The notes under the pieces: model-generated
Databases searched by the model: none
What the model was told of the DNA's origin: nothing
Seen by the model: the letters and a program-made list of their open reading frames with translations, nothing else
Position numbers and translations under genes: made by a program
Assembly (NCBI GenBank): GCA_021735655.1
Contig: JAIPGM010000004.1
Coordinates: forward strand, 32,001-96,000
DNA from: Candidatus Omnitrophota bacterium
GTDB taxonomy: Bacteria; Omnitrophota; Gorgyraeia; Duberdicusellales; 4484-171
Length of the DNA: 64,000 nucleotides
Reading direction: 5' to 3'
Shown: one piece after another, positions 7,618 to 44,497 of the stretch
Numbering within the stretch: the stretch's first letter is position 1
Layout: the number at the start of each line of letters is the position of its first letter

Positions 7618-9916
<2,299 letters not shown>

Positions 9917-9922
9917 TTTATT

Positions 9923-10777: not shown

Positions 10778-10794
10778 GACAACCCTTTTCTAGT

Positions 10795-11238: not shown

Positions 11239-11284
11239 TTTTTTCTCCTAATTACTAGTAAGATAATCACCACCATAGGTATTA

Positions 11285-27250: not shown

Positions 27251-28044
27251 TGCAACTCCTTAATACATGAAGAGAACATCTCTGGACCAAAAATACTTTT
27301 TTCTTTAACAAATCCTAAAAGTAAAACTCGATCACAAAGCATATTAACTAAACGAGGAATCCCTTTAGAAAATTCATAAATTAACTTAAAAGACTCTGGG
27401 GCAATTACGATATGTTCAGCCTCAGCTTGTCTTAACCGAAAATTAACATACCGCTCCACTTCAGCCTGGTTTAAAGGACTAAGGTTATGTTTTACGAAAA
27501 TACGTTGATGTATTTGTCGTAAATCAAACCGATTAAGCTTTTCAGTCAACTCCGGCTGGCCAACAAGAACAATTTGCAACAACTTATCAGTTGAAGTTTC
27601 TAAGTTAGAAAGTAGGCGGATTTGTTCTAACTGACGATTGCTTAAATCCTGAGCTTCATCAATAATGACTACTGCCTTTTCACCCCTCAAATTAATATCG
27701 ACCAAAAAAGAATTTAGGGCATTGACAATATCGAGACGGGTTTTCTTTTTAAGCTTCAAACCAAAATCCTCTACTATTGCTCGCAATAACTGAACCTCGC
27801 TAAAATAAGGATTAAGGATCAAAGAAGTCCTAGTGTTAGCCGAAATTCGATTAAGAAAAGCCTTACAAAGAGTAGTTTTACCTGTCCCTACTTCGCCAGT
27901 GATAAGAATAATGCCTTTTTTCTCTTGAACTCCATAAGATAACGCCGCCAATGCTTCCTTGTGAGATAAGCTCTCAAAGAAAAATTGTGGATCAGAAGTA
28001 ATATTGAAAGGTATCTTTTTTAAACCGTAAAGTTCTAGGTACAT
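27247..28044 (-). CDS. ExeA/GspA/MshM-like AAA+ ATPase
   Basis: Walker A ITGEVGTGKTTL; Walker B VVIIDEAQ; 265 aa. Adjacent to the secretin gene. Confidence 0.75.
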   Translation of the reverse strand: MYLELYGLKKIPFNITSDPQFFFESLSHKEALAALSYGVQEKKGIILITGEVGTGKTTLCKAFLNRISANTRTSLILNPYFSEVQLLRAIVEDFGLKLKKKTRLDIVNALNSFLVDINLRGEKAVVIIDEAQDLSNRQLEQIRLLSNLETSTDKLLQIVLVGQPELTEKLNRFDLRQIHQRIFVKHNLSPLNQAEVERYVNFRLRQAEAEHIVIAPESFKLIYEFSKGIPRLVNMLCDRVLLLGFVKEKSIFGPEMFSSCIKELQ

Positions 28045-28077: not shown

Positions 28078-29610
28078 CTATTTTTCCTTCTTTTCATTTA
28101 GATTAAACTGAACCGGTATCTGACTTGCCCTTATAAGATCTTGACCGAATATTTCACCAGGCTGTACGATTTCAGCGGTGATAAAAATTAACAAATCAAT
28201 CTTATCAATGTCTTCGGTTTGACGCTTAAATAACCAACCAATTAAAGGTATCTTGCTTAAATAAGGTATACCAATATCATACCTGCTTTTTACATCTTTA
28301 AGCAAACCACCAATGACAATCGTCTCGCCGTCTTTAGTTATTACTTGAGTTTCTGCTTCTCGAGATGTAAGCCAAGGATAAGAAACAAGGGTGGTTTGAT
28401 TTTGATCAACGACTCCGATGTCACTTAAACGAGCGGTAACCGCCGGATGGACAATCATACTGATAAAATCTTCGTTCTCGCCGCAAATCTGAGGCACAAC
28501 ATTAAGTTGAATTCCAATATCCTGATAGAAATCTAGAGAACCGCCAGTAATCTGAGAAGTTTCACTACTGGTTTCGGTTTTAACAATTGGGTATTTCTGT
28601 CCAACAAGAATAGATGCTTCCTGGTTATTCAGAGTAAGGATTACCGGCGCCGAAAGCGTATTAGTCCGAACATCTTCCTCAAGAGCATGAATTATCATCT
28701 CAAACTCAGTACCAGTAAGCTTACGGTACAAAAATTGATAAGCATTAGAAGTGATACCGCTTGCCCCGGAAGGTGTTGATGATATTGAAGGTATCGGAGA
28801 TATCGCCCGAATTGCTGCCTGGCCAATAAGATCACCGGCACTATTTTTATCAGCATCTACATATTGAGCTGAGCTTGCAGTCGCTCCGGTTGTACCAGTT
28901 CCCCAGTCAAGACCAAAATCTTCAAGCACGTCTTTACTAACCTCCATAATCCTGGTTTTTATCAAAATCTGTTTCGGCATAACATCAATTTTTTCAAAAA
29001 GGGTATCTATCTCATCTAATTTCTTAGCAATATCGGAAACAACCATTATCTTAGTCCGAGAGGTTTTTCCTTCTTTGACTCTTTGTCTTTTAGTAACATC
29101 GGTACCAAACTCCCAACCAGCCTGGCCAGTAGTTTCTAAAACTGAAATTCTTCCCATCGGAGAAAGTAACGGCTCAATCATTTTCCTAGCATCATTAGCA
29201 TCGATGAATTTTAAGCGATAAACTTTAGTCCGAGCAGGCTCCACCTCCTGACGCTCTTTAGCTGAAGCTTCTCTTCCGCTTATCTTTTCAGTAGTGTCTA
29301 CCAAAACTATATTTTCTCCGACCCACTCATAACTATAATTATAGGGGCGGATGACTGCCTCAAGGGCAGTAAACCAATCTACTTGCTCTAAATTTATACT
29401 AACTAAACCTTGAACCTCGGGACTCACCACTATGTTGATTTTTTGACCTTCTTTGTAAGCTTTTTGAGCTATTGACTGAAGAACAATTTTGATGTCGACA
29501 TCTTTAAACTTAATTACCGATATTGACTCATTTTGAGCACACACAAAGCTAGCCGGGATCAAACAACAAACAATAAACAATAATATAATTGATTTTTTAT
29601 ATTTTTTCAC
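28078..29610 (-). CDS. pilQ: Type IV pilus / T2SS-type outer-membrane secretin
   Basis: Signal peptide, STN-like N-terminus (VIKFKDVDIKIVLQSIA), secretin C-domain (NQEASILVGQKYPIVKTETS...LLIFITAEIV). Confidence 0.85.
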   Translation of the reverse strand: MKKYKKSIILLFIVCCLIPASFVCAQNESISVIKFKDVDIKIVLQSIAQKAYKEGQKINIVVSPEVQGLVSINLEQVDWFTALEAVIRPYNYSYEWVGENIVLVDTTEKISGREASAKERQEVEPARTKVYRLKFIDANDARKMIEPLLSPMGRISVLETTGQAGWEFGTDVTKRQRVKEGKTSRTKIMVVSDIAKKLDEIDTLFEKIDVMPKQILIKTRIMEVSKDVLEDFGLDWGTGTTGATASSAQYVDADKNSAGDLIGQAAIRAISPIPSISSTPSGASGITSNAYQFLYRKLTGTEFEMIIHALEEDVRTNTLSAPVILTLNNQEASILVGQKYPIVKTETSSETSQITGGSLDFYQDIGIQLNVVPQICGENEDFISMIVHPAVTARLSDIGVVDQNQTTLVSYPWLTSREAETQVITKDGETIVIGGLLKDVKSRYDIGIPYLSKIPLIGWLFKRQTEDIDKIDLLIFITAEIVQPGEIFGQDLIRASQIPVQFNLNEKKEK

Positions 29611-29981
29611 TATTCCTCCAGTTCTAAAGTAAACCCTTGGTTATTTTTCTCTAGAATAACTTTCCTTCTTTCAATAGTTAAGACTTTATACTCACCAATC
29701 ATGTCTCCGATTTTAACTACTTCATTATTAATAATTGCCACTGATTCTTCTTCAGAGTATATTATACCTCCTAATTCCATGTTTGTAACGTCTGTTTCGC
29801 GAGGTATAAGAATTAGCCCATTTCGGCTAACTAAAGGGACAAACGGATCCCGGCTATTTAGCCCAAAAGAATATTTTTCTAAACTCGCATCGGTGGTCGC
29901 CGTTTGAGAGAATCCCAAAGTCGGCAAAACCAACAATAACGAAATAAAAAATACAACTATTACTTTTCGGCTATCGCGCAT
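29610..29981 (-). CDS. PilP-like pilus assembly lipoprotein/periplasmic protein
   Basis: 123 aa with signal peptide; its position between pilO and pilQ; beta-domain shared with the 26750-27250 ORF. Confidence 0.45.
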   Translation of the reverse strand: MRDSRKVIVVFFISLLLVLPTLGFSQTATTDASLEKYSFGLNSRDPFVPLVSRNGLILIPRETDVTNMELGGIIYSEEESVAIINNEVVKIGDMIGEYKVLTIERRKVILEKNNQGFTLELEE

Positions 29982-30499
29982 ACTACTATTTCTATAGAAT
30001 TATAAGGGTAATCTGAAGAAACTTTTAACTCTTTAATATCAAAAAAATATTGGCTAGTTTGAAGATATTCCAAAAATAAAGCTAAGTTATGAAATTTAGC
30101 TTTGGCCTCTATACTGATTGGCAAATAGAATAAATTCTCTTCCGATTCCGCAAGATAGTTAATCAATTCGCCAGGGAGAAAAGACTTTATCTCTACCCCA
30201 AACTCCTTGCTAGCGGTTGAAATAAAAGATAGTGATTCTGAAGCTTCCTGAGAAAGAATGAGCTTGCTTCGACTATTCTCTATTTGATTTTTAAGCTCTT
30301 GATTAACCTTTGAATACTCATTAAGCCTAGGCCAATCATTCTCGGTGCTCTTAATTTGCTGACCGATTAAAGCGATTTTCTTATTAAGGCCAATCACTCT
30401 CTTTATGCTCCAAGGAAGCAAAATCAGTATTTCAATTACAATGACCGCGATTAAAAGTGAAAACGCAATTATTTTTTTATCAAAATTTATTTTTTGCAT
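29960..30499 (-). CDS. PilO-like inner-membrane pilus assembly protein
   Basis: Single N-terminal TM plus coiled coil, 179 aa; its position in the pilMNOPQ order. Confidence 0.5.
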   Translation of the reverse strand: MQKINFDKKIIAFSLLIAVIVIEILILLPWSIKRVIGLNKKIALIGQQIKSTENDWPRLNEYSKVNQELKNQIENSRSKLILSQEASESLSFISTASKEFGVEIKSFLPGELINYLAESEENLFYLPISIEAKAKFHNLALFLEYLQTSQYFFDIKELKVSSDYPYNSIEIVVCAIAEK

Positions 30500-31050
30500 T
30501 CGACAATGAATTTTAGAACCTCAGCATTATTGAAATTTTCCTTTTGGGATTCCTTTATTTCAACTACCGAGAATTGTGAAGAAAAGTACTCTCGCTCACG
30601 CAAAGATCTAATAAAATCATTTAAAGATACTAAAAAATCTTTATTCCATTTCACCACATAGCCTTGAATTTCTAGAGTTCCTTCCTGAAAATCTAAATTT
30701 TGAAACCATATGTTTTTAGGTAGTGAGAAAAAAATATCCCCTAAAATAAGGGACATTTTATAGCGCGGGGTTAAAACTTTATCTAACCTGTCGCGTTTTG
30801 TTTTTAAATTATTGGTTTGCTGCTTGATATCCTGCAGGGTTTTAGCTTTTGACTCCCATTGCTGCCAATTTTTAGCCTCAGAAGAGTAAGTATGGGCCTT
30901 TTTCAAAGCTATTACCTGAAGCAATAAAACCATGGCCAAGCCAACAATGGCAACCACAATCAACAAAGGAAGATAGGCGATTAAATTTCCTAAATCTAAT
31001 TTCATCGCCTTTTGTTTTTGAGGACTTAAATTTATAACTACTTTTTTCAT
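30487..31050 (-). CDS. PilN-like inner-membrane pilus assembly protein
   Basis: Single TM (LPLLIVVAIVGLAMVLLLQVIAL), 187 aa; directly downstream of the pilM-like gene. Confidence 0.55.
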   Translation of the reverse strand: MKKVVINLSPQKQKAMKLDLGNLIAYLPLLIVVAIVGLAMVLLLQVIALKKAHTYSSEAKNWQQWESKAKTLQDIKQQTNNLKTKRDRLDKVLTPRYKMSLILGDIFFSLPKNIWFQNLDFQEGTLEIQGYVVKWNKDFLVSLNDFIRSLREREYFSSQFSVVEIKESQKENFNNAEVLKFIVECKK

Positions 31051-31063
31051 GCTAATAAATACA

Positions 31064-32194
31064 TTATAAAATCAAACCGAAGGCGGCCGAAAAACTACTC
31101 TTAAAGTGATTAAACCGCTCATCTAGGATTTGACCGTCTAGTTTTTTTAAAAAGCTAGGGATATTTGGCAAAAGGCTCACCTCTACATCTAAGGCTTCAG
31201 CAAAAACACTCTCAATATCTTTAATCGAAGCTAACCCGCCGGTCAAATAGACTTTATCTATATGTTCACCTTTGTTAACTTCGAAATAATCAAAAGAGCT
31301 TTTCATTTCCTTGCAAAGCCCCGAGATGCCGCTTTGAATAAATTCCAGAAATTCGCCAGCATCAGGAGAACTCACAAGTTGCTTTTCAACCTCACCTGGC
31401 TTCAAACCTTTGGTCCGAGCTACGATCGCCACTATATCTTTTGTGCTGAATTTGACATCCCGAGTTAGAAAAGGAACCCCTTTATTTACGATCGTCATAA
31501 CCGAGAAACTACTGCCAATGTCTAAAATGCAAGAATTAATCTCCTTGTTATCGCTACAGTTATCGAGAAAAAGATTGAAGATGCAAATGCTATCTAAATT
31601 TATCTCAGATACTTCTACTCCGAGTGTTTTAAAAGCTTCCAAAATATTATCGATATAATCCTTCTTGGCGACGGCTAGCAAAATTGATAGCTCTGTTGGG
31701 CTGGCATCTTTTAAAATATAATAATCAAAATACACCTCTTCCGGAGAAAAAGGAATATGCTTATTCAGCTCATAGAAAAGTGCCTGCTCTAATCTTTTCT
31801 TCTCCATTTTAGGAAAGGAAAAATAACGCACTAGACAACTCGGATTCTTAATAGAAATCTTGACTGATTTGGCAGAAATCTTCTTTTGAGCCCAGACTTT
31901 TCCAAGAGTTTTAACTAAATCTTCATTCGGTTCAATAAAATAATCAGAAAGGCTATCTCCTTTAAAAATTAGCCCTTTAAGGTAGTAATTTCCAATGTTT
32001 AAACCTACCGTGGGCCTAGCTTCAGTTTTAAGAAAATCATTCGGCCGGAGAATTTTTCTAACCTGTTCTTTAAATTGGCTAATCGGTAAGGATTTTTTGA
32101 ATCGCTTCAAAACAGACTGCGATTGAATTGCTTTTAGAAAAACATTAGCCTTGATCATCATATATATACTATTATAGTCATTACGGCTTGTCAA
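31064..32194 (-). CDS. pilM: PilM-like actin-fold pilus assembly ATPase
   Basis: 376 aa, VGLNIGNYYLK and ILDIGSSFSVM (actin/FtsA-like phosphate loops); first gene of the MNOPQ order. Confidence 0.7.
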   Translation of the reverse strand: MTSRNDYNSIYMMIKANVFLKAIQSQSVLKRFKKSLPISQFKEQVRKILRPNDFLKTEARPTVGLNIGNYYLKGLIFKGDSLSDYFIEPNEDLVKTLGKVWAQKKISAKSVKISIKNPSCLVRYFSFPKMEKKRLEQALFYELNKHIPFSPEEVYFDYYILKDASPTELSILLAVAKKDYIDNILEAFKTLGVEVSEINLDSICIFNLFLDNCSDNKEINSCILDIGSSFSVMTIVNKGVPFLTRDVKFSTKDIVAIVARTKGLKPGEVEKQLVSSPDAGEFLEFIQSGISGLCKEMKSSFDYFEVNKGEHIDKVYLTGGLASIKDIESVFAEALDVEVSLLPNIPSFLKKLDGQILDERFNHFKSSFSAAFGLIL

Positions 32195-32210
32195 CGCAAT
32201 AGGAAGAATT

Positions 32211-32669
32211 TTACTCTACTTCGGAAAAGCCAACAGGACAACTTGTTCCGATATGAATATTTGGGGCAGGAGTGTTTACAGAATTAGATCTACAAAGAAG
32301 ACCGTCCTCGTCAATATAATAAGTTTTAGCTTGAGCTAAATTCTGCGGTGTGGCCGTAGCGTAGAAATCAATGTAAGTATTAGGAACCGCTTTAATAATA
32401 TATTCCTGCTTTATGCCGCTAGCTAAAGAAACGTCAATATAGGGAGGCTGGGCAGAAGCTAACTCCTGTAAAGTTGCATATTCCGGGTTAGTTGCCCGCC
32501 ACTGCACTTCAGCAGAACAAACAATGCGAAGAAGATTCGCCGAAATAGCTGCTCGGGCAGACATCCGCGAACGCAATAAATTAGGTATAGCCAAAGCTGC
32601 CAAGACAGATATTATGGTTACAACTATCATAAGCTCCATGAGAGTTATGGCCTTTTTTAATTTTTCCAT
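32211..32669 (-). CDS. Type IV (pseudo)pilin, paralog B of the major pilin
   Basis: Class-III signal/N-terminal helix KKAITLMELMIVVTIISVLAALAIPNLLRSR; C-terminal disulfide loop CRSNSV...CPVGF. Paralogous to 35328-35777 (shared blocks ATNP.YA.L, PPYID, YYIDEDG.LCRS). Its start overlaps the OST gene end by 13 nt. Confidence 0.8.
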   Translation of the reverse strand: MEKLKKAITLMELMIVVTIISVLAALAIPNLLRSRMSARAAISANLLRIVCSAEVQWRATNPEYATLQELASAQPPYIDVSLASGIKQEYIIKAVPNTYIDFYATATPQNLAQAKTYYIDEDGLLCRSNSVNTPAPNIHIGTSCPVGFSEVE

Positions 32670-35327: not shown

Positions 35328-35777
35328 TTACTGCATTTCAGCATAACCAGATGGACAAGCATTCGTACCTTCATGAGCTGCGGCAGCAGTGCCAACAGCA
35401 GTAGATCTACATAGAATTCCATCTTCATCTATATAGAAAGAATGACCTTGTGCAGCAGTATTAACTGCTCTAGCTGCAAAAGTCCCATTAGTGTTGTCGG
35501 TAACAACTGAAAAAGTATATCCCTGTTTAGTTCCACCAGCCAAAGTTGTATCAATATAGGGTGGATTCTCACTGCCTAAAGTTGCCAAGGCAGCATAACC
35601 AGGATTAGTTGCTCGATATTGAATCTCAGCGGCAGCAACTGTATGAGCGGCTGCAGCTGCAGCAGCTTCTTGGGCTGACAAACGAGCCCTCAAAAGATTG
35701 GGTATAGCTATCGCCGCTAAAAGAGCAATGATAGCTACAACGATCATAATTTCAACAAGAGTAAAACCTTTCTTCAT
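35328..35777 (-). CDS. pilA: Type IV major pilin (paralog A)
   Basis: MKKGFTLVEIMIVVAIIALLAAIAIPNL, a canonical prepilin leader and N-methylatable F+1. Strong GGAGG RBS. C-terminal CRSTAV...CPSGY disulfide loop. One N-G-T sequon. Confidence 0.9.
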   Translation of the reverse strand: MKKGFTLVEIMIVVAIIALLAAIAIPNLLRARLSAQEAAAAAAAHTVAAAEIQYRATNPGYAALATLGSENPPYIDTTLAGGTKQGYTFSVVTDNTNGTFAARAVNTAAQGHSFYIDEDGILCRSTAVGTAAAAHEGTNACPSGYAEMQ

Positions 35778-35976: not shown

Positions 35977-37191
35977 TCAATGAACTCCGCCAATATATTG
36001 GGTAATTTTGATTATTGGCAAAAATAAAGAAACTACAATGCCACCAACGACTATTCCCAAAAAGCCAATAACTATAGGCTCGATTAAACTTGATAACCCA
36101 GCAACCATAGCATCAGTCTGCTCTTCATAAAATTGAGCTATCTTAGACAACATCTCCTCCAGCCTTCCGCTTTTTTCACCTACCGAAATCATCCTGGTAA
36201 CCATTGGAGGGAAAACTCCGGTTTTTTCTAAAGGAAAAGAAATCGGCTGTCCTTCTTGAATCGCTGTCCGGGACTCCATAACTGCCTCTTCAATAACAAC
36301 ATTTCCTGAGGTCTTGGCTACAATCTCCAAACACTTTAATATCGGAACTCCGCTACGAACCAAAGTAGAAAATGTCCGGGAAAATTTAGCAATCGCTAAC
36401 TTTCTAGCTAAATTTCCAAATACCGGAAGCCGTAAAATAAATTTATGGAAGTTGCGCTTGCCTTTTGGTGTTTTGATATAACGAGTAAAAAGCATGCCGC
36501 CGCCGCCTAAAATAATCAGTAAGCCAAGGATTGATGTTGGCTTTCGGGCCAAATCCGAAAAACTTATCAAAATTCTAGTAGGCAAAGGTAAAACCCCGCC
36601 AAGAGCAGAAAAAATCTCTTTAAAGGTAGGGATTACCTTAAAGATTAAAAACGAAGTTATGGCTATCGCCATAAGAACAATGATTACCGGATAATAAAGA
36701 GCCGAAATCACTTTCTTCCTTAAAGCACTGCTTTTTTCTAAGTAAAATGAAACCCGATCTAAAATCTCCGGCAAATTCCCAGAAGCTTCCGCTGCTTCAA
36801 CCATGCTTAAATAAATATCAGGAAAAACATCCTTATGCCCAGAAAGGCTGGCTGAAAGAGATGTTCCTTCTTTAACCTCGCGCAAAATAGCCCAGATAAC
36901 TTCCTTAAAATAAGCCTGCTCGGTTTGTTCGCCTAGAATGCCCAAACACTCAACTACCGGAATTCCGCTTTCAATTAAAGTAGTGAATTGACGCGAAAAA
37001 ATTACTAAATCATCGGTTTTTATCTTGCCTTTTCTTTTTTTCCTAGCCTTTTCCTTAGTCTCTTCAATTGAAAAAATAATACTCTCTTGGCCATGAAAAT
37101 GCTCAATAAGCTTTTGTTTAGACTCAGCCTCAATAACCCCCTTGGTTGTTTTTCCTTCCTTGTCCTTAACGATATATGAAAATAACTTCAT
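35977..37191 (-). CDS. pilC: Type IV pilus inner-membrane platform protein (GspF/PilC family)
   Basis: 404 aa, two T2SSF repeats (…GIPVVECLGILGEQ… / …GVPILKCLEIVAKT…), 3 TM segments. Confidence 0.9.
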   Translation of the reverse strand: MKLFSYIVKDKEGKTTKGVIEAESKQKLIEHFHGQESIIFSIEETKEKARKKRKGKIKTDDLVIFSRQFTTLIESGIPVVECLGILGEQTEQAYFKEVIWAILREVKEGTSLSASLSGHKDVFPDIYLSMVEAAEASGNLPEILDRVSFYLEKSSALRKKVISALYYPVIIVLMAIAITSFLIFKVIPTFKEIFSALGGVLPLPTRILISFSDLARKPTSILGLLIILGGGGMLFTRYIKTPKGKRNFHKFILRLPVFGNLARKLAIAKFSRTFSTLVRSGVPILKCLEIVAKTSGNVVIEEAVMESRTAIQEGQPISFPLEKTGVFPPMVTRMISVGEKSGRLEEMLSKIAQFYEEQTDAMVAGLSSLIEPIVIGFLGIVVGGIVVSLFLPIIKITQYIGGVH

Positions 37192-37192
37192 C

Positions 37193-38914
37193 TCACTCCG
37201 AGATTACCCGAATAACTTCCTCTGCCGAAGTTACCCCTTCGCTACATTTTAAAAAACCATCTTCGGCCAAAGATTGGTAACCCTTAAATTCTCGAGCGTA
37301 CTGGATAATCGTTTCCTCAGTTGCTAATTCAATAATCATCTCTCTTATTTTATCATCTAAAAGAATAATTTCCAGTATTGCTACTCTACCTCTATAACCG
37401 CTGTGAGCGCAGTGAGGACAGCCCTTGGCTCGATAAATCTTTTTTGGCTCGTTGTTCCCCATTATTTTACTACTTAATCCAAACCCCAAACGCTTCAATA
37501 AATCCTTATCCGGGATATATCCTTCCTTACATTTAGGACAAAGCTTACGCACTAAACGCTGAGCAGTAAGGGCAACTAACGATGAAGCTAACAGGAATGG
37601 CTCTGTACCCATATCGCGCAGACGAGCTATTGCTCCCACTGCGCTATTGGTATGAAGAGTAGAAAGTATGGTCTCGCCGGTTAAAGAAGCTTTAATCGCT
37701 GTGTCGGCAGTCTCAGCATCTCTGATTTCACCAACCATAATTACATCCGGTGATTGACGCAAAACCGACCGTAAACCAGCAGAAAAAGTTAAGCCGATTT
37801 CAGCATTAACTTGAATTTGAGTTATACCTTCTAAATGATACTCAACCGGCTCTTCAATAGTTATAATATTTTTATCAGTCGAGTTAATCTGATTAATGAT
37901 TGAATAAAGAGTTGTTGATTTACCGCTTCCAGTTGGCCCAGTAACTAACATTATTCCAAAGGGAGCTTTGATTGCCTCTTCAAACAAAGCCAGCGGCCCG
38001 GGCGAAAACCCTAGTTTTTTTAACCCTATCGATAAGCTCTCTCTATCGAGCACCCGGAGAACAAACTTCTCGCCAAAGTGGGTAGGTAAACTAGAAACTC
38101 TAAAATCTATTTCCCGAGACTCAAATTTAACCCGAAATCTACCGTCTTGAGGAAGCCGCGACTCAGTAATGTCTAGAGATGAAATGATCTTCAAGCGAGC
38201 AATTACGGCTTGCTGGCTGGTTTTAGGAAAACTAAACTCATCGGCCAAGGATCCATCTACTCGATAACGAATTAATAATTTATCTTCACAAGGCTCAATA
38301 TGGATATCTGATGCCCGCTTCTTTAAGGCATTATAAATAATAACATCAATTGCTCTCACGACCGGAGGATGCTTGCTTTCTGAAATTGAACTCTCTAGAT
38401 CTTGTTTAGACTCTTGATGCAACAATCCTTCGCCAACCGAATCAAGAGATACATCGCTACTAAGGGTTTCGGAAATATGTTCAGCCGACTTGTATAAAAA
38501 ATTTATGGCTCTACTTATATCCTTCTCACGAGAAAGAACCAAATCAACCTTTTCGGCATTGGTAATAATCTTTATGTCGTCATGAGTAATAACATCTAAA
38601 GGATTGGCTGTGGCCAAAGTCAGAACATTGCCGATCTTGCATAAAGGAAGAACCTTATGCTTAATTGCTATATCTTTAGGTAATAGCTCTTGATTCTTGT
38701 AAGGTAGTTTATATTTTTTTAAATCAAGAAAAGGGATCTTAAGTTCTTTGGAAAACATCAATAAGAGCTCTTCTTCGCTGATAAGCCCGCTCTCAATCAA
38801 AAGGCTCCTTAAATCAGCATAGGTACGAGCTCGTTTGGCAATATCGATAAGGACCTTCTTGTCACATTTTTTGTCCTCTTGAATGTACTTTATTATCTTC
38901 TCTTTTATGGTCAT
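37193..38914 (-). CDS. pilB: Type IV pilus assembly ATPase (GspE/PilB family) with N-terminal T2SSE_N/MshEN-type domain
   Basis: Walker A GPTGSGKST, Asp box, His box, tetracysteine CPKC...CPHC. 573 aa. Confidence 0.9.
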   Translation of the reverse strand: MTIKEKIIKYIQEDKKCDKKVLIDIAKRARTYADLRSLLIESGLISEEELLLMFSKELKIPFLDLKKYKLPYKNQELLPKDIAIKHKVLPLCKIGNVLTLATANPLDVITHDDIKIITNAEKVDLVLSREKDISRAINFLYKSAEHISETLSSDVSLDSVGEGLLHQESKQDLESSISESKHPPVVRAIDVIIYNALKKRASDIHIEPCEDKLLIRYRVDGSLADEFSFPKTSQQAVIARLKIISSLDITESRLPQDGRFRVKFESREIDFRVSSLPTHFGEKFVLRVLDRESLSIGLKKLGFSPGPLALFEEAIKAPFGIMLVTGPTGSGKSTTLYSIINQINSTDKNIITIEEPVEYHLEGITQIQVNAEIGLTFSAGLRSVLRQSPDVIMVGEIRDAETADTAIKASLTGETILSTLHTNSAVGAIARLRDMGTEPFLLASSLVALTAQRLVRKLCPKCKEGYIPDKDLLKRLGFGLSSKIMGNNEPKKIYRAKGCPHCAHSGYRGRVAILEIILLDDKIREMIIELATEETIIQYAREFKGYQSLAEDGFLKCSEGVTSAEEVIRVISE

Positions 38915-38915
38915 C

Positions 38916-40619
38916 TTATTTTAATGGTTCATCTGGCGCAGTAACTTTAAGTACTTCTTCTAAAGTAGTAATTCCTTTTTCGACTTTCAAAATTCCATCC
39001 TGGCGCAAAGTACGCATACCTAGGTTACGGGCTTTTTTCTTAATGATACTTTCTGAAGCCGAAGAGTTTACTAAATTTTTTATTTGTTGATCAACGTGCA
39101 GATACTCACAAAGGGCAACTCTTCCCTTATAGCCAGTATTCTGGCAATTTCTACAGCCTTTTGATTTATAAATTAAAACTTCTTTATTAATAAGATATCG
39201 CTCGCGAACCGAATCAGATAATTCAAATTCCTCTTTACACTTAGGACACAACATTCGCACTAAACGCTGAGTGAGCACCCCAACCAATGTCGAAGAAAGC
39301 AAAAATGGCTCAACTCCCATATTAATAAGACGAGTGATTGAACCTGCGCTGGTCGTAGTATGAAGTGTGGAAAGAACTAAGTGCCCGGTTAAAGCTGACT
39401 TTATGGCCATGTCAGCAGTGTCAGCATCTCTGACCTCACCGATCATTATTATGTCCGGATCCTGACGCAATATTGAACGTAAACAGGCAGAAAAAGTCAA
39501 ATGAATCGAAGGATTAATACTGGTTTGGTTGATCCCTTTTAATTGGTATTCTATCGGATCTTCTACGGTAACTATGTTCTTCTCCGGTGCGTAAACATGT
39601 TTAATCACCGAATAAAGGCTGGTGGTCTTACCGGCCCCAGTAGGACCACAAACCAAAAGAAGACCGTGAGACTTAAGACTATCTTCCCGTAACTGTTTTA
39701 AAACATCTTCTTCAAACCCCAAAAGATCCAAATTAAGTAAAGCAGTTGCCTTATCTAAAACTCTAATCGCGACTTTTTCTCCAACACTAGTAGGAAGAAC
39801 TGAAACTCGAAAATCAACATTTTTATTTGAAATTCTGCTCCGAAATCTTCCTTCTTGAGGCAAACGGTGTTCGGCAATGTTTAAATTACACATTACCTTT
39901 ATCCGTGATATAGCAAAAGGATGAATTTTTTTTGAAAAGGTATCGATTTCTTGCAAAATTCCGTCAATCCGAAATCGAATCCGACTTACGTTTTCTAAGG
40001 GTTCTATCAGAATATCTGAAGCGGCCTCTTCAACTGCCTTAGTTAAAAAAGAATTGGTAAACTTTATTACCGGAGCCTCTTCAATTGAACGGACGATTTC
40101 TTCTTGAGTTACTTCCTTTTTGACCTTTTTTACAAACTCTAAGCTTTCGGCATGCTGCCCCTTAATAATATCCTCAATCGAAACCATATGGACCTGAGAA
40201 TAATGCATTGAGATGGCTTCTTTTATTTCTGAAAGCGGGGCAATTATCGGATTTACTTCACACTTAGTAATTTTTTTAATATCGTCAATAACTAAAATAT
40301 CTAAAGGATCACCCATGGCCAAGGTTAAGGTGTTGCCAATCTTGCCGATTGGTAAAACCTTATGGTCTCGGGCGACTCTTTCCGGAACTAAAGATATGAT
40401 CTCCTTGGGAATATTAAGATTAAGGATTCGAACCGGTGGGATTGAAAGATAGCTAGATAGTAAATCGAGAAGATCTGGTTCTTTTATGTAGCCTAACTGC
40501 ATAAGCTGCTCAACTAAAGAACCGCCCTTCTCCTTGTGGACGACTAAGACTTTATCTAAATCCTGTTTAGTTAAAAGTCCTTTTTCTAATATGTAATCGG
40601 TAAATTTTTTACTCTTCAT
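38916..40619 (-). CDS. Second GspE/PilB-family secretion ATPase paralog with N-terminal T2SSE_N domain
   Basis: Walker A GPTGAGKTT, CPKC...CRNC; 567 aa. Its N-domain IGNTLTLAMGDPLD matches the one in the standalone ORF. Confidence 0.9.
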   Translation of the reverse strand: MKSKKFTDYILEKGLLTKQDLDKVLVVHKEKGGSLVEQLMQLGYIKEPDLLDLLSSYLSIPPVRILNLNIPKEIISLVPERVARDHKVLPIGKIGNTLTLAMGDPLDILVIDDIKKITKCEVNPIIAPLSEIKEAISMHYSQVHMVSIEDIIKGQHAESLEFVKKVKKEVTQEEIVRSIEEAPVIKFTNSFLTKAVEEAASDILIEPLENVSRIRFRIDGILQEIDTFSKKIHPFAISRIKVMCNLNIAEHRLPQEGRFRSRISNKNVDFRVSVLPTSVGEKVAIRVLDKATALLNLDLLGFEEDVLKQLREDSLKSHGLLLVCGPTGAGKTTSLYSVIKHVYAPEKNIVTVEDPIEYQLKGINQTSINPSIHLTFSACLRSILRQDPDIIMIGEVRDADTADMAIKSALTGHLVLSTLHTTTSAGSITRLINMGVEPFLLSSTLVGVLTQRLVRMLCPKCKEEFELSDSVRERYLINKEVLIYKSKGCRNCQNTGYKGRVALCEYLHVDQQIKNLVNSSASESIIKKKARNLGMRTLRQDGILKVEKGITTLEEVLKVTAPDEPLK

Positions 40620-41060
40620 TTAAGGGTAGAATCTACCTATACCACTACGTATGTCTGAAGGGGTACTAACAAATATTTGGATATCGCAATGGGTCAGGTC
40701 TTCTAAATCTTCAATGGCATGAATATTAAGAGGATTGGCCATAGCTAAAGTCAAAGTGTTCCCTATTTTATCTATTGGAAGTAAACAATAATGACCGCAA
40801 ACGTTTTTGGGGACTAAAGAAACTACCTCTTCGGAAACTTGATAGTTCTCTAAAGGAAGATAGGGATAACCAAACTGTAAAGACAAGCAATAGGCAATAT
40901 CTTCCTCTTTGGCAAAGCCTAAACTTACAATGACTTCACCGATTAAACCTCCTTGACGTTTCTGGCTTGTTATAGCTTCCTTCAGTTGATCGGGAGTAAT
41001 TACCCCTCTTTCTGCTAAAATCTGCCCCAAAGGCTTATCTATTTTTTTGTGAGATTTCAT
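40620..41060 (-). CDS. Standalone T2SSE_N / MshEN-type domain protein (predicted c-di-GMP-binding)
   Basis: 146 aa. PLGQILAERGVITPDQLKEAITSQ fits the MshEN motif RLGxxLLxxGxIxxxQLxxALxxQ. IGNTLTLAMANPLN is the shared N-domain block. Confidence 0.7.
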   Translation of the reverse strand: MKSHKKIDKPLGQILAERGVITPDQLKEAITSQKRQGGLIGEVIVSLGFAKEEDIAYCLSLQFGYPYLPLENYQVSEEVVSLVPKNVCGHYCLLPIDKIGNTLTLAMANPLNIHAIEDLEDLTHCDIQIFVSTPSDIRSGIGRFYP

Positions 41061-42380
41061 TTAATTATCTTGCTTATTTTTCTTAAGCTTGGTGAATTTA
41101 ATCAACTCTTTGGCAGTTGTCCCGTCCAATGGGCTTGCTGCCACCGAAAAAGAAAGCTTAACTTTTCCCTGAGTTATTACCTTAAGAGCGGCTTCTGCCT
41201 TCTTCGCTGCCTCTTGAGAATGACGCTTATTGCTTTCTATAATAATGGCACCTAAGGTTTGGGGGCCTATTCTTCCGGCGATATCAATCGGACGCAAACT
41301 TCTCTTAAAGCCATGGGCGATTTTTTTAAGTATCTTCTCAGATTCAATCAAACCAAATTCTTTCTGATATTTATCAGGATCTAACAAACTAACCGAGATA
41401 AAGCCACAGGGACGCTGATAAATGCTTGAGCGCCTTATTTCTTCATCAAGCCTTCTAATAATTACCTTTTCATTATATAGATCAGTCAAATCGTCAAGCA
41501 CCTCTAAATCTTCAATCTTTGAAGAAAGACGTCGATGCTCCCAAATAAGAGTTACATTTTGAGAAAATAGGTTCAAAACATCTATTTCGTCTTTGCTAAA
41601 ATTATACTCATCCTGATTATTGCCGACTCCGACGATACCAACAACTATGCCTTTAGCAACAACCGGGACTAAAGCCATATTCACAAGCCCCAATTCTTTA
41701 GCCCACCCCAGATAAGGCTTAGGTTTATTGCTAGAATCAACAACTGACAGCTTCATCCTCTGAGGTAAATCACTATTACGATTTTCAATAAAAGAATCGA
41801 TAATCGGTATTTCTACTCCTAAAAAGGAAATTGGTTTTAGCTTACTTTGAGCATCATCTTTTAAGCTACAAAAACAAACATTAGTTTCCAAAATCTTCTT
41901 TAAATGCTCACTTAAAAACTTAATAATCTCTTCAGCCGGAGCATCCTTAGAAAATAAATCATTGGCCTGTAGAATAGCTGAGAGGACAAGAACTTTCTTA
42001 GTGACCTCTCGGTTGAGTTCTTCGGTTTTTTGAGTAAAGTCTTTTAATTCTTCAAACCCGCTTTTAACTTTATCCGAAAGTACGTTAATAACTGTCTCTA
42101 GGCTCTGGACTTCATCTGAAATTTCTGGAGCCTGTTCGCCAATATCTTCTAAAGCAGTCTTTGATTGTGTATATAGTCTAATAATTGATGAAAAAACCTC
42201 AAAAACAACTCGCCATCCCAAAATTACAACTAATAATAATGTCGTAGCTGCAAAAAAAGATATCTGGTATCCGAATAAATAGTAAAGAAGCACAATCAAC
42301 GGAATGAGAGAAACCAAAGCAATCGAAATCCAAATCCTTCTGGCTAGACTTAAATTAGTTATTCTATTTTTTGTTTTCAC
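41061..42380 (-). CDS. Membrane-anchored GAF + degenerate GGDEF protein (PelD-like c-di-GMP receptor architecture)
   Basis: 2 N-terminal TM segments, a coiled segment, a GAF-like block, then a GGDEF fold where the A-site reads GRIGPQTL instead of GG(D/E)EF. The RxxD I-site (RPID) is retained 5 aa upstream. Confidence 0.6.
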   Translation of the reverse strand: MKTKNRITNLSLARRIWISIALVSLIPLIVLLYYLFGYQISFFAATTLLLVVILGWRVVFEVFSSIIRLYTQSKTALEDIGEQAPEISDEVQSLETVINVLSDKVKSGFEELKDFTQKTEELNREVTKKVLVLSAILQANDLFSKDAPAEEIIKFLSEHLKKILETNVCFCSLKDDAQSKLKPISFLGVEIPIIDSFIENRNSDLPQRMKLSVVDSSNKPKPYLGWAKELGLVNMALVPVVAKGIVVGIVGVGNNQDEYNFSKDEIDVLNLFSQNVTLIWEHRRLSSKIEDLEVLDDLTDLYNEKVIIRRLDEEIRRSSIYQRPCGFISVSLLDPDKYQKEFGLIESEKILKKIAHGFKRSLRPIDIAGRIGPQTLGAIIIESNKRHSQEAAKKAEAALKVITQGKVKLSFSVAASPLDGTTAKELIKFTKLKKNKQDN

Positions 42381-42662: not shown

Positions 42663-43532
42663 CTATTCAATATCTTGCCAAGACACTGTCTCCGAAGATG
42701 AGAACCCCAAATTAGCTAAAGCTGCACTTATCAGGTCAGGGTCATAAGCTAAATCGACACTGCCCTTAATGGTAGTATCTATACCGGCGCCGCTTTCAGC
42801 AAGAACTGACCCGCTGATAGCAACATTACCGGTAATTGAAAGTTCCCCGATAACATAAATTATACCTTCAAAATTTTCAGTTCCCGACATGTGAACGTCC
42901 CCTTCTATGACTAAAATCCCGCTGCCCTGTAAATTTCCTGCCGTTGTCAAAGTTACCCCCGGAGAAACCTCAACCCAGGTTATGCCGTCAACCGGCTCAC
43001 CAAAAGTGCTTTCATCGTAAAGGTGCGTGGCCATATTCTTTACTGATTCTTTACTATTTGCAAACAAATCCGAAAAATTTAAAACCGCTTGTTCATTGAA
43101 CGAATCCTCAGGAGTAATGGTATATGCCTGGCCTTTAATTACTAAATCACCTGTTGTCTCAATCGCGTATTGGAACTTGGAGGAATCAGGAGGATCTACT
43201 CTTACAATTGCGCGTAAAGACTTTTCGATTGTTGCCCCGGAAGATAAAGTAACTGTGCCGGTTGAGTCGATCTGATAATACCAATTACCTAACGCTTCTG
43301 TGGTTGCCGCATAACAATAGTTACTTTTCATACATCCAGATGTATTGTCGGGTAGATTACCCTTGCTCATTGCAATACCAGCCTCGGCCAGCCAAAAAGC
43401 TTCGACAGCCCCTACATATCTTGTGGTAAGCTTGTTCTCATTTATAGTTTTTAAAAAAAGTGCTGTCGATAGCATAATCATAATCAACATCATTAAAAGA
43501 CTAAGGATTAAAACACCGCCTCTTTTATTCAT
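42663..43532 (-). CDS. PilX-like minor pilin / pilus assembly protein
   Basis: N-terminal MNKRGGVLILSLLMMLIMIM hydrophobic segment typical of the PilX N-terminus; 289 aa. Confidence 0.55.
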   Translation of the reverse strand: MNKRGGVLILSLLMMLIMIMLSTALFLKTINENKLTTRYVGAVEAFWLAEAGIAMSKGNLPDNTSGCMKSNYCYAATTEALGNWYYQIDSTGTVTLSSGATIEKSLRAIVRVDPPDSSKFQYAIETTGDLVIKGQAYTITPEDSFNEQAVLNFSDLFANSKESVKNMATHLYDESTFGEPVDGITWVEVSPGVTLTTAGNLQGSGILVIEGDVHMSGTENFEGIIYVIGELSITGNVAISGSVLAESGAGIDTTIKGSVDLAYDPDLISAALANLGFSSSETVSWQDIE

Positions 43533-44154
43533 TTCTTATTTTCACATCCAGTTCTAAGGTAATTGGAAGAAGGTCCCTCTCCCGAACCTGACTTTGGCCG
43601 GTGATCGCGACAACCATCCTCTTACTATTATTAAGATTATCTTTAAAATTATCCGTCGTTCTCGCGCCGCCAGTATCGATAGTATAAAAAGGCGGCTCTG
43701 TTATGCCTATAAACTCCCTGCTTTCTGTTGTATTGTTGCCGCTATCAATAACACTGCGCGTAATCTTACTTAAAGTATTATCGTAATCATACTCAATATA
43801 GTCCAGACTTAATATATAATTACCGGTAGTTGTATTTATCCCGTCAACCGTCCGAAATTTAATATACGAAGCAGAAGGGTTATTGTTGGCTATGTCCCAG
43901 CAAGGAGCCTGGCGGATATCTCTAACTATTAAATTCCCTATCGACCTTATCTTAGCCTGAAAATCTATTTTGGCAGTCATTACCGGAAAAACTGATTCTC
44001 CTGCTTGAAGAACTCTAACCACTGCAGTAGCAATAAGTGACAGCACCAGAGAAGCAATCAATATCTCCGTAAGGGTAAATGCTTTCTGCTTAGCGATGAA
44101 TGCATGTTGAGAGCTCAAAATATCTTGTTTTCTGCCTTTCAGACCAGCTAACAT
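43525..44154 (-). CDS. Minor (pseudo)pilin with prepilin-type N-terminus (PilW/PilV-like)
   Basis: QKAFTLTEILIASLVLSLIATAVV class-III leader; 209 aa. Confidence 0.65.
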   Translation of the reverse strand: MLAGLKGRKQDILSSQHAFIAKQKAFTLTEILIASLVLSLIATAVVRVLQAGESVFPVMTAKIDFQAKIRSIGNLIVRDIRQAPCWDIANNNPSASYIKFRTVDGINTTTGNYILSLDYIEYDYDNTLSKITRSVIDSGNNTTESREFIGITEPPFYTIDTGGARTTDNFKDNLNNSKRMVVAITGQSQVRERDLLPITLELDVKIRNE

Positions 44155-44497
44155 TTGCTATTACCTCCGTAAGCGACGTTTCTGTACCTGCCGCCTGAAC
44201 AGTAACATTCTCATCTATCAAATTATCAAACACCGGCGGAGAATAAACATCTATATCCCCATAAGATAAGGTCTTGATCTCCTCTAATACACATTGAGCA
44301 TCGTTAGCCGCAGCTACTAAGTTATTGCTTGATTCATTGAGAAAAGCGCAAGAAACAAAAGCCATAATCAACCCACTAGCAACTATCATTATAATAGCCG
44401 CAGCTATCATCACTTCCAATAGAGTAAACCCAGCCCGCTTAGAAAAACTCTTACGCATAGCTTTATTTATTTGGCCTTTTTCCTTAAAATTCCTCAT
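44090..44497 (-). CDS. Minor (pseudo)pilin with prepilin-type N-terminus (PilV/FimT-like)
   Basis: RAGFTLLEVMIAAAIIMIVASGL class-III leader; 135 aa. Confidence 0.65.
   Translation of the reverse strand: MRNFKEKGQINKAMRKSFSKRAGFTLLEVMIAAAIIMIVASGLIMAFVSCAFLNESSNNLVAAANDAQCVLEEIKTLSYGDIDVYSPPVFDNLIDENVTVQAAGTETSLTEVIANVSWSERQKTRYFELSTCIHR

Follow-up and report, generated by a model that had tools for sequence, protein, structure and literature searches.

What does an MshEN domain do when it is encoded by a gene of its own, beside two pilus assembly ATPases that each carry such a domain already? The window (the whole 64-kb stretch of DNA that we analyzed) comes from a Candidatus Omnitrophota genome and contains a type IV pilus gene cluster with this arrangement. 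According to the Pfam results, three adjacent minus-strand genes encode an MshEN domain (PF05157). All three matches exceed the gathering score (E = 4.3e-21 for the free-standing protein of 146 aa, which is MshEN only, 5.8e-19 for PilB1, 567 aa, and 2.2e-16 for PilB2, 573 aa), and the coordinates of the genes (41060..40620, 40619..38916 and 38914..37193) are exactly those given in a preliminary description of this DNA. The junctions in the trio are of the form TAA-ATG, with intergenic distances of 0-1 nt. The 146-aa gene, which had been described as the third of the three, is transcriptionally the first. The features of the cluster are as follows (window coordinates):

42663..44497, minus strand: genes for minor pilins and a PilX-like protein, lying ahead of the regulatory pair (N_methyl, PilX_N, DUF7305)
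41061..42380, minus strand: degenerate-GGDEF membrane protein, 439 aa (Pfam GGDEF, E = 9e-12)
40620..41060, minus strand: free-standing MshEN protein, 146 aa, candidate c-di-GMP receptor without ATPase domain (PF05157, NF053729)
40962..41033, minus strand: c-di-GMP motif I of the free protein, residues 10-33, PLGQILAERGVITPDQLKEAITSQ (translation)
40947-40961, minus strand: 5-residue spacer KRQGG between motifs I and II (translation)
40875..40946, minus strand: c-di-GMP motif II, residues 39-62, LIGEVIVSLGFAKEEDIAYCLSLQ (translation)
40623..40874, minus strand: MshEN_C (T2SSE_N / N1-type) subdomain of the free protein, residues 63-146 (PF05157 match to residues 63-145)
38916..40619, minus strand: PilB1, PilB/GspE-type assembly ATPase, 567 aa (T2SSE, E = 1.4e-130)
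37193..38914, minus strand: PilB2, second PilB/GspE-type ATPase, 573 aa (T2SSE, E = 1.3e-133)
35977..37191, minus strand: PilC/GspF platform protein (T2SSF, E = 1.2e-61, and PilC NCBIfam models)
35328..35777, minus strand: candidate major pilin carrying a prepilin N-methylation motif (N_methyl and IV_pilin_GFxxxE matches)
28078..32669, minus strand: second pilin, PilM, PilN, PilO, T2SSB/PilP-like protein and PilQ secretin (Pfam)

Domain, fold and distribution of the free protein

Among the three MshEN proteins, only PilB1 and PilB2 contain the T2SSE ATPase domain. No match to PF00437 was found in the 146-aa protein, which is thus not an ATPase of the PilB/GspE type and, as had been claimed, consists of the MshEN domain only (PF05157: 75.1 bits, cut-off 23.1). 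Its match to TIGR02538 is limited to profile positions 2-136 and reaches 75.8 bits, where the cut-off is 675. We note that the JGI label 'type IV pilus assembly protein PilB' describes the domain only, because this protein has no ATPase domain. PilB1 and PilB2 both fall under the equivalog cut-offs of TIGR02538 and TIGR02533, and both have the full PilB/GspE architecture (MshEN/N1, N2, ATPase and four-Cys motif) and lie in the pilus cluster. In PilB1 the two Walker motifs (A and B) are intact, as are its Asp and His boxes and its four-Cys motif, and the ATPase motifs are present in PilB2. PilB2 represents a separate orthologous group (~800-970 bits to its orthologues vs ~430 bits to PilB1).

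The AF2 model of the free protein (pLDDT 91.8) has helices at residues 11-17, 23-36, 40-46 and 52-63 and a beta/alpha part after them, giving the four-helix bundle and three-stranded alpha/beta subdomain of the MshEN fold. The closest fold match found by Foldseek is MshE bound to c-di-GMP (PDB 5HTL, TM 0.79-0.83), and other top matches include PilF GSPII-A, GSPII-B (c-di-GMP-bound) and XpsE-N. PDB sequence matches are to PilF GSPII domains (PilF being the best, E = 3.3e-42 summed), the N-domains of Geobacter and Myxococcus PilB, and MshE (5HTL).

Homologues of the free protein form more than 120 clusters of 145-150 aa with 68-93% identity over the full length, and those with an organism named by the source are Omnitrophota without exception. 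The module order (degenerate-GGDEF protein, MshEN, PilB1, PilB2, PilC, pilin) was found in ~40 species-level genomes. In 40 out of 46 MshEN-seeded loci PilB1 is the next gene after the free MshEN gene (median gap 32 nt), and an independent PilB1-seeded metagenome scan found the free gene in all 21 orthologous loci that have upstream sequence. In one genome (L044), the gene is located beside PadR and PilQ in a locus without PilB. No active diguanylate cyclase was found within the window, and only one GGDEF-motif ORF was seen across all loci examined.

c-di-GMP motifs in the free protein and the ATPases

The strict MshEN motif consists of two 24-residue copies of [RKL]LGxx[LVI][LVI]xxG[LVIF][LVI]xxxxLxxxLxxQ placed 5 residues apart. 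Both copies and the canonical spacer KRQGG are found in the free protein; motif II was absent from the preliminary description, which had called motif I near-perfect. Motif I is indeed present at residues 10-33, and the family consensus retains 10 of its 11 strict key positions, but the wording was slightly generous for the window copy, which retains 8, with Pro at position 1, Ala at 7 and Ile at 21. Taking both motifs together, the window copy has 16 of 22 strict key positions (family mean 17.7); it departs from the motif at I-1 (P), at I-7 and II-12 (both A), and at I-21, II-2 and II-17, where Ile stands in place of Leu. Pro rather than Arg, Lys or Leu at motif I position 1, together with Ala at two hydrophobic positions, speaks against a c-di-GMP-sensing role. 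Both window motifs match the relaxed pattern of Wang 2016, which permits Pro at position 1 (PMC5013675), and motif I of NfrB (RPLGQIL) likewise has Pro at position 1. Leu at position 1, which the free protein has in motif II, is a high-affinity variant in PilF GSPII-B (PMC11731258).

As had been proposed, the free copy carries the best motifs and the ATPase-attached copies are poorer: NF053729 (c-di-GMP_motif, NCBIfam, cut-off 38) gives 61.6 bits for the free protein and 34.2 bits for PilB1, and has no match in PilB2 (window copy and 33 orthologues), even at E <= 1e-3. At E <= 1e-9 it detects 43/43 free copies and 20/38 PilB1 N-domains; that half of the latter still reach this level counts against the motor-subunit reading proposed below. 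The residues G12, Q33, G41 and Q62 of the free protein, which are G3 and Q24 of the two motifs, are invariant or nearly so in sets of 43 and 63 homologues. In the orthologue alignment, motif I keeps G3 in 43/43 and Q24 in 42/43 free copies, and L1, G3, G10, L21 and Q24 of motif II are each found in 43/43.

The PilB1 bundle in the window lacks G3 and Q24 in both motifs; among its 38 orthologues G3 is found in none for either motif, and Q24 in 16 for motif I and in none for motif II. PilB2 lacks all four contact residues (G3 and Q24 of both motifs). In MshE, the G11L mutant shows no binding, G40I binds 72-fold, Q32A 9-fold and Q61A 12-fold more weakly, and XpsE, with G11V, G40L and Q61V, is a non-binder (PMC5013675). 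Since the Gly of motif I is swapped for a small Thr or Ser in PilB1, its N-domains may bind c-di-GMP weakly in cis.

The block that had been reported as shared by the three N-domains is present, as IGNTLTLAMANPLN (the free protein's), IGNTLTLAMGDPLD and IGNVLTLATANPLD, but it is located in MshEN_C, outside the c-di-GMP-binding bundle of four helices. Here ANPLN is found in the free family vs DPxD/N in most PilBs; judging by position, ANPLN probably replaces the guanine-contacting Asp of MshE. Cys58, Cys92 and Cys125 are invariant in the free family and are absent from canonical MshEN domains.

Constraint, origin and a natural fusion

Conservation was calculated as mean pairwise identity over the same 27 genomes for all proteins. 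The bundle has an identity of 0.76 in the free copy, 0.52 in PilB1 and 0.47 in PilB2 (ATPase cores: 0.73), and MshEN_C has 0.72, 0.64 and 0.61, respectively. Read from these identities, constraint has moved to the putative binding bundle of the free copy, which is conserved like the ATPase cores.

A contig of 62.5% GC (L050, non-Omnitrophota) encodes a 765-aa fusion of a motif-bearing MshEN domain, a degenerate MshEN domain and a PilB1-like ATPase, followed downstream by a PilB2-like ATPase and then PilC. The first domain of this fusion is nearer the free family than PilB1 or PilB2 in 100% of the bootstrap samples.

The preliminary description had raised an origin of the free gene by duplication of the PilB1 N-domain. 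A recent event of this kind is unsupported by the phylogeny: free copies and PilB1 N-domains are sisters in 0 of 500 bootstrap trees, and the Geobacter PilB N-domain is closer to the free copy (distance 1.25) than the neighboring PilB1 is (1.50). Bootstrap support for the deep nodes of this domain tree is weak (27-38%).

Candidate roles and known systems

The 439-aa protein encoded upstream, which belongs to the conserved module and had gone unmentioned in the preliminary description, is a membrane protein with a weak GAF-like region (GAF and GAF_2 matches are below the Pfam gathering score) and a degenerate GGDEF domain. GPQTL takes the place of GG[DE]EF in its A-site, the I-site-like RPID is still there, and a PDB alignment pairs its 'rpidiagrigpqtl' with 'rksdiisrfggeef'. 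GG[DE]EF is found in 0/38 orthologues; with GPQTL in the window copy, this speaks against an active diguanylate cyclase. Most of the orthologues retain RxxD, and all have D366 and R370. In 39 loci the gene directly precedes the free MshEN gene, in many cases with an overlap at the MshEN start, and at L046 a shorter degenerate GGDEF (DDGQF) stands ahead of the module. PelD of Pseudomonas aeruginosa has a receptor-type architecture that combines a membrane anchor with a GAF-like region and a degenerate, RxxD-bearing GGDEF domain. The 439-aa protein is built similarly, its GAF-like region being one of sub-threshold matches, and differs in being encoded in a pilus cluster instead of an exopolysaccharide operon. 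By analogy it may work like PelD; no PelD chain was among its PDB sequence matches at E <= 1.

We consider it probable, at roughly 55%, that the free protein senses c-di-GMP as a detached subunit of the type IV pilus motor encoded downstream (PilB1, PilB2 and PilC), because the split between an intact free sensor and ATPases with lost motifs is kept across the phylum. The preliminary description had suggested a detached sensor acting on the ATPases, and comparative support for it comes from gene order, the 21/21 loci, the partition of motifs, the constraint and the fusion. What we observed are the identity of the domain, its intact motifs and fold, the gene order, the selective constraint and a fused counterpart; c-di-GMP binding, the physical partner, the sign of regulation and an action on either ATPase are what we infer. 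Under this proposal, an MshEN-type receptor that is now a separate polypeptide would bind c-di-GMP in its N-terminal four-helix bundle, built from the two 24-residue motifs, and binding would re-orient the bundle relative to the C-terminal alpha/beta subdomain (cf. PilF GSPII-B). The re-orientation would change the association of the small protein with the hexamer of PilB1, PilB2 or both. The N-terminal bundles of these ATPases would themselves no longer bind the nucleotide well, and pilus extension would be tuned by the c-di-GMP level. Functionally, the free protein would be the non-covalent counterpart of the extra N-terminal MshEN in tandem-MshEN PilB ATPases. The ANPLN loop, the L044 locus without PilB, the weak deep nodes and the lack of a diguanylate cyclase in the window weigh against this reading.

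Among the alternatives, the least unlikely, though still doubtful, is that the free protein mainly partners the membrane-anchored degenerate-GGDEF protein, the two forming a membrane c-di-GMP receptor pair (I-site on one protein, MshEN bundle on the other) that would position or recruit the pilus machine without addressing the ATPases directly, likened to FimX-PilZ-PilB or PelD. The adjacency in 39 loci, often with overlap, the retention of RxxD with loss of the A-site in 38/38 orthologues and the recurrence of a degenerate GGDEF at L046 are consistent with such a pair; however, conservation within the module is lowest for the GGDEF-like protein (mean identity 0.50), the L050 fusion has no such gene upstream, I-site binding is putative, and the pair would be compatible with a detached motor subunit instead of excluding it. 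It is unlikely, too, that the free protein is a c-di-GMP-controlled decoy, whose MshEN_C would compete with PilB1 and PilB2 for a docking site on PilM or the platform and so inhibit motor engagement, or set which motor engages, rather than activate. A natural fusion to a PilB1-like ATPase suits a cooperating subunit better than a competitor, even though MshEN_C is more conserved in the free copy than in either ATPase, PilM is encoded in the same cluster, and the homologous N1 domain of GspE binds GspL (PDB 2BH1 and 4PHT are among the fold matches).

We regard it as improbable that the protein binds no c-di-GMP and has another ligand or is a purely structural motor accessory, its motif likeness reflecting the fold only. 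G3, Q24 and the Leu/Ile triads, which touch the nucleotide by backbone or side chain, are precisely the invariant residues, and the score is well above the curated NCBIfam cut-off, which argues against such a reading of the Pro at motif I position 1, the Asn for Asp in the ANPLN block and the three invariant Cys. NfrB, in which motif I reads RPLGQIL, binds c-di-GMP, and its NCBIfam name, 'cyclic di-3',5'-guanylate-activated glycosyltransferase', agrees with this. It is hardly credible that the free gene is what is left of a third PilB, decaying after the loss of the ATPase part: a domain-only architecture beside two full-length paralogues would look the same, but the identity of 68-93% and the constant length over more than 120 clusters, a conservation above that of the neighbors and the presence in every PilB1-seeded orthologous locus (21/21) effectively refute it.

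The proposed detached motor subunit has partial parallels in known systems. In FimX-PilZ-PilB (Xanthomonas) and FimX-PilB (Pseudomonas), a separate c-di-GMP receptor controls pilus assembly, acting on the PilB N-terminal domain (PDB 7LKM/7LKO/7LKQ; PMC8389850, PMC5595344); the receptors there are degenerate EAL/GGDEF and PilZ folds, whereas the trans factor here would be MshEN itself, a paralogue of the PilB part that it presumably addresses. The bundle is also found outside secretion ATPases in P. aeruginosa PA3740 (MshEN_N only, listed as 'probably functional' in the Wang 2016 supplement; PMC5013675) and in the MshEN_N fusion Bd2402 of Bdellovibrio (PMC12943098), but those have the N-terminal bundle only, and the literature searched held no report of a conserved operon with motif-less PilB paralogues, and no experimental work, for proteins of this type. 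The MshEN domain of Vibrio cholerae MshE (5HTL, PMC5013675) shares the two 24-residue motifs, the 5-residue spacer, the four-helix bundle and the alpha/beta subdomain; the window protein differs in being detached from the ATPase (identity ~29%), in having Pro (motif I) and Leu (motif II) instead of Arg at position 1, and in having ANPLN where MshE has an Asp-containing loop. Thermus thermophilus PilF (6F8L, 6EJF, 8PDK) is alike in having several MshEN-type domains per motor, only some of them c-di-GMP-competent (two of the three cis domains are binders; PMC11731258), and the start of its GSPII-C ('KPLGEIL') resembles the window protein. PilF is a single chain with a single ATPase, whereas here the putatively competent domain has its own gene, followed by two ATPase paralogues with degenerate domains.

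Gene cluster and fold of the free MshEN protein

The pilus-cluster genes of the window are all on the minus strand and tightly packed, with TAA-ATG junctions.

Table. Pilus-cluster genes in order of transcription
44497-42663, minus: minor pilins and a PilX-like protein, farthest upstream
42380-41061, minus: 439-aa membrane protein with a degenerate GGDEF domain
41060-40620, minus: 146-aa MshEN-only protein (the free copy)
40619-38916, minus: PilB1, 567 aa
38914-37193, minus: PilB2, 573 aa
37191-35977, minus: PilC
35777-35328, minus: pilin, the major pilin candidate
35203-32657, minus: STT3/AglB/PglB-type oligosaccharyltransferase, 848 aa (PF02516, E = 2.4e-37)
32669-28078, minus: second pilin (32211-32669), then PilM, PilN, PilO, a PilP-like protein and the PilQ secretin
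27247-28044, minus: AAA_22 ATPase, directly 3' of the PilQ secretin gene

Translation of the ORFs reproduced the coordinates, the 146-aa length, the IGN...PL(D/N) block shared by the three MshEN-bearing genes and the 24-residue string quoted in the preliminary description. The small gene had been called the third of the three; on the minus strand it is transcribed first. The shared block needs a correction too, as it belongs to the C-terminal subdomain, outside the nucleotide-binding bundle.

The AlphaFold2 model of the free protein (alignment of 63 homologues, database proteins) has a pLDDT of 91.8, and the structures it matches best are those of MshE bound to c-di-GMP (5HTL, TM 0.79–0.83) and of the GSPII domains of PilF. 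On every computational criterion its domain belongs to the MshEN family. Some sources name the protein PilB, which it is not; these small MshEN proteins are systematically mis-annotated, carrying the labels 'PilB' or 'hypothetical'.

The two tandem ATPases, PilB1 and PilB2, are both complete with intact ATPase motifs, and belong to separate ancient orthologous groups. No PilT-type retraction ATPase was found in the 64-kb window, and no active diguanylate cyclase either (an ORF with RYGGDEF was found once, at locus L019). The oligosaccharyltransferase gene lies inside the pilus cluster, next after the gene for the major pilin candidate, also at L005, L008, L020 and L024; this embedding of an STT3-type gene suggests that Omnitrophota pilins are glycosylated by an N-OST-type enzyme. 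The AAA_22 ATPase, which we take to be ExeA/GspA-like, is encoded directly behind PilQ both in the window (27247-28044, minus strand) and at locus L044 (5577-6374).

The 439-aa protein upstream of the free copy matches the GGDEF domain with E = 9e-12, with GPQTL at the active site. GG[DE]EF is absent from all 38 orthologues, and the Asp that would bind the first metal is likewise replaced; the RxxD I-site motif (RPID) is mostly retained, with D366 and R370 invariant. A cyclase role is excluded for this protein, which may instead act as a second c-di-GMP receptor or anchor the module to the membrane (degenerate-GGDEF protein, free MshEN, PilB1, PilB2, PilC and pilin). Its likeness to PelD is one of architecture only: GAF matches are below the Pfam cut-offs, and no PelD chain is among its PDB matches.

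Nucleotide-contact residues in the free and PilB-attached copies

The preliminary description held that the free copy has the best c-di-GMP motif and that the ATPase-attached copies match less well, and the scores bear this out. With NF053729, the NCBIfam model of the 53-residue binding bundle (cut-off 38 bits), the free protein scores 61.6 bits and PilB1 34.2 bits, and PilB2 has no match. The free protein also has a second complete motif that had been missed (residues 39-62), following the first after the canonical 5-residue spacer. Calling the first motif near-perfect was slightly generous, as the window copy has 8 of the 11 strict key positions.

In each motif the nucleotide contacts are the position-3 Gly and the position-24 Gln; the G11L mutant of MshE does not bind, binding is 72-fold (G40I), 9-fold (Q32A) and 12-fold (Q61A) weaker in others, and XpsE, which has G11V, G40L and Q61V, is a non-binder (Wang et al. 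2016, PMC5013675). At these four positions, G12, Q33, G41 and Q62 are found in the free protein and T, H, V and Y in PilB1; in the PilB2 N-domain the motif is not recognisable. At position 1 of motif I the free protein has Pro, as NfrB does ('RPLGQIL'); the relaxed motif of Wang et al. (2016, PMC5013675) allows it. Motif II starts with Leu, which has been tied to very high affinity in PilF GSPII-B (Neissner et al., PMC11731258).

Table. Contact residues across the clade (43 free copies, 38 PilB1 N-domains, 33 PilB2 N-domains)
Gly at position 3, motif I: free 43/43; PilB1 0/38; PilB2 0/33
Gln at position 24, motif I: free 42/43; PilB1 16/38; PilB2 0/33
Gly at position 3, motif II: free 43/43; PilB1 0/38; PilB2 0/33
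Gln at position 24, motif II: free 43/43; PilB1 0/38; PilB2 0/33

At E <= 1e-9, NF053729 matches all 43 free copies; PilB2 N-domains have no match (0/33) even at E <= 1e-3. PilB1 N-domains, of which 20 of the 38 match the model at E <= 1e-9, thus retain the helical scaffold, and PilB1 may have weak residual c-di-GMP binding. We note that the free family has three invariant cysteines (C58, C92 and C125) and, in place of the DPxD/N of PilB N-domains, an invariant ANPLN (N109/N112); by positional inference, N109 probably corresponds to MshE D108. These cysteines and the ANPLN could reflect redox chemistry, metal binding or an altered guanine contact.

Conservation of the module in Omnitrophota

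An identical protein (100%), annotated as hypothetical, is encoded in a metagenome-assembled Candidatus Omnitrophica genome. Homologues of 145–150 aa form more than 120 clusters (68–93% identity), and all of those for which a source gives an organism name are from Omnitrophota. Scanning one genome per species, with ORFs called and classified against the window proteins, gave 45 loci, all Omnitrophota by title or gene context; a few carry automatic labels of other taxa. Several public metagenome-assembled genomes with the module (e.g. L006, L010–L012 and L023) are labelled 'uncultured Planctomycetia' or 'Methanosarcinales archaeon', which is probably automatic mislabelling or mis-binning.

The free gene is immediately 5' of PilB1 at 40 loci (median gap 32 nt), and the degenerate-GGDEF gene is immediately 5' of the free gene at 39; nearly all exceptions to the module order are contig ends. 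A PilB1-seeded search of metagenome contigs, run against seeding bias, found the free gene in 21/21 orthologous loci with upstream sequence, and it is likewise present beside a more distant PilB1-PilB2 pair (L072, 47% identity). PilB1 and PilB2 form distinct orthologous groups, with orthologues scoring about 800–1000 bits and paralogues about 420 bits, so the duplication of the ATPase is old.

Among the same 27 genomes, mean pairwise identity is 0.76 for the binding bundle of the free copy and 0.72 for its C-terminal subdomain, 0.73 for the PilB1 and PilB2 ATPase cores, and 0.52, 0.47 and 0.50 for the PilB1 bundle, the PilB2 bundle and the degenerate-GGDEF protein, respectively. We infer that the nucleotide-contact residues are now under selection in the free copy alone. 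A pseudogene or gene fragment is ruled out by the conservation and constant length of the free protein.

Strict complementarity, with the cis motif kept wherever the free copy is absent, was not observed. Of the more distant loci with a single PilB, L079, L080 and L083 keep the position-3 Gly and the position-24 Gln, and at L075, L076 and L082 the motif is degenerate with no free copy nearby. Two arrangements differ from the module. Locus L044 (1053-6374, plus strand) encodes YkuD, AccA, PadR, free MshEN, PilQ and AAA_22, and is without the GGDEF-like gene, PilB1, PilB2, PilC, pilins and PilMNOP; deletion, relocation or an assembly artefact could have produced it. Locus L046 (8066-12156, plus strand) encodes a 280-aa degenerate GGDEF protein (DDGQF), a PilT-like 353-aa ATPase, free MshEN and only one PilB; the bundle of that PilB is nearer the consensus (RL..., Q24 present).

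Origin, proposed role and relatives in other architectures

The preliminary description raised duplication of the PilB1 N-domain as a source of the free gene. In neighbour-joining trees on 147 columns (500 bootstrap replicates), free copies, PilB1 and PilB2 N-domains form separate clades (93%, 74% and 100%, respectively), and free copies and PilB1 N-domains are sisters in 0/500 replicates. By distance, the Geobacter PilB N-domain (1.25) is closer to the free copy than the neighbouring PilB1 is (1.50). A recent duplication is thus rejected, the distances being those of an old split; deep nodes of the domain tree have weak support (27–38%).

An exhaustive search of 1.84 billion representatives returned 19,789 relatives at E <= 1e-3, including many more MshEN-only proteins of 145–210 aa (the two named ones are Omnitrophota) and proteins in which MshEN is repeated in tandem two to seven times. 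One relative, P0132, combines a motif-bearing MshEN, a degenerate MshEN and a PilB1-like ATPase in one 765-aa chain; on its metagenome contig (L050, 62.5% GC; 8001-12017, plus strand) genes for a PilB2-like ATPase and PilC come next. In 100% of bootstrap samples the first domain of P0132 lies nearer the free family, and in 79% the second lies nearer PilB1 or PilB2. P0132 is a Rosetta-stone fusion that joins the free gene to PilB1, and of all the computational evidence it hints most strongly that the two proteins act jointly. Upstream on that contig, glycosyltransferase and deacetylase genes take the place of the GGDEF-like gene. Degeneracy of the ATPase-proximal domain is not a general feature of tandem-MshEN PilBs: P0146 and P0165 have Gly at motif position 3 in both domains (sequences read by eye).

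We favor the reading, at a probability of roughly 0.55, that the free protein binds c-di-GMP and serves the tandem PilB motor as a detached sensing subunit; in that case it would be a non-covalent equivalent of the extra MshEN domains in PilF or P0132. Several observations count against it: motif I starts with Pro, ANPLN replaces DPxD/N (probably at the MshE D108 position), PilB1 N-domains are still similar to the NF053729 model, and at L044 the free gene has PadR and PilQ as its neighbours and no PilB close by. That the protein does not bind c-di-GMP at all, as the first two of these might indicate, we consider improbable, given the contact residues kept across the free family.

Two other readings concern the partner of the free protein. 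It might mainly pair with the degenerate-GGDEF membrane protein as a localization hub, which is compatible with a detached subunit and, though unlikely, is the least unlikely of the alternatives. A little less plausible is that its N1-type subdomain, which is very conserved, competes with the PilB N-domains for PilM or the platform, as an inhibitory decoy or selector. That the gene is the remnant of a third PilB gene is contradicted by its conservation, and we give this next to no weight. A broader, speculative and rather unlikely reading is that one diffusible MshEN subunit, common to two PilB motors, senses c-di-GMP for the Omnitrophota pilus; its nucleotide state would select which ATPase engages the PilC/PilM platform, possibly in place of the usual PilB/PilT antagonism, with the membrane-anchored degenerate GGDEF protein as docking or hand-over site.

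MshEN is among only two or three widespread c-di-GMP receptor domains and, to our knowledge, has been studied so far as a cis-acting N-terminal module of secretion/pilus ATPases or glycosyltransferases. Known systems include FimX and PilZ (trans-acting c-di-GMP receptors for PilB), PilF (a multi-MshEN ATPase) and PA3740 (a small MshEN_N-only protein). The stand-alone examples in the supplement of Wang et al. (2016, PMC5013675) are MshEN_N-only. In the searchable literature we found neither a characterised stand-alone full MshEN nor this Omnitrophota module, and no conserved operon combining a separate full-MshEN gene, two bundle-decayed PilB paralogues and a degenerate GGDEF protein. The module would be a phylum-wide case in which a predicted binding-competent MshEN is its own gene and the tethered copies have decayed. 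If true, MshEN can act as a stand-alone adaptor, like PilZ proteins, and the module is a clean natural system separating sensing from motor: a single sensor serves two motors, and another lineage has the fused form. Omnitrophota is a phylum of ultra-small, probably host-attached bacteria whose type IV pili are thought important for their lifestyle, and the reading proposes a concrete c-di-GMP output for these uncultivated organisms.

The architectural range of MshEN in metagenomes is wide. P0002, P0010 and P0014 (202–218 aa) are free-family variants of the form (MshEN_N)2-MshEN_C, with the N-terminal four-helix bundle duplicated and KPLGQIL...Q motifs in both bundles. Free-type MshEN is fused to a putative DnaA-like AAA+ module (assigned by eye) in P0162 (454 aa) and to a large C-terminal region in P0160 (723 aa). 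Other proteins noted here, among them P0126 and P0150 (about 1325 aa), have up to seven tandem MshEN stretches. The Omnitrophota MAG ELA036, which has the standard module at L026, also encodes a 284-aa MshEN-PilZ fusion (L047, 9980-10834, plus strand) joining two c-di-GMP receptor folds, which recalls the Xanthomonas PilB-N/PilZ complex.
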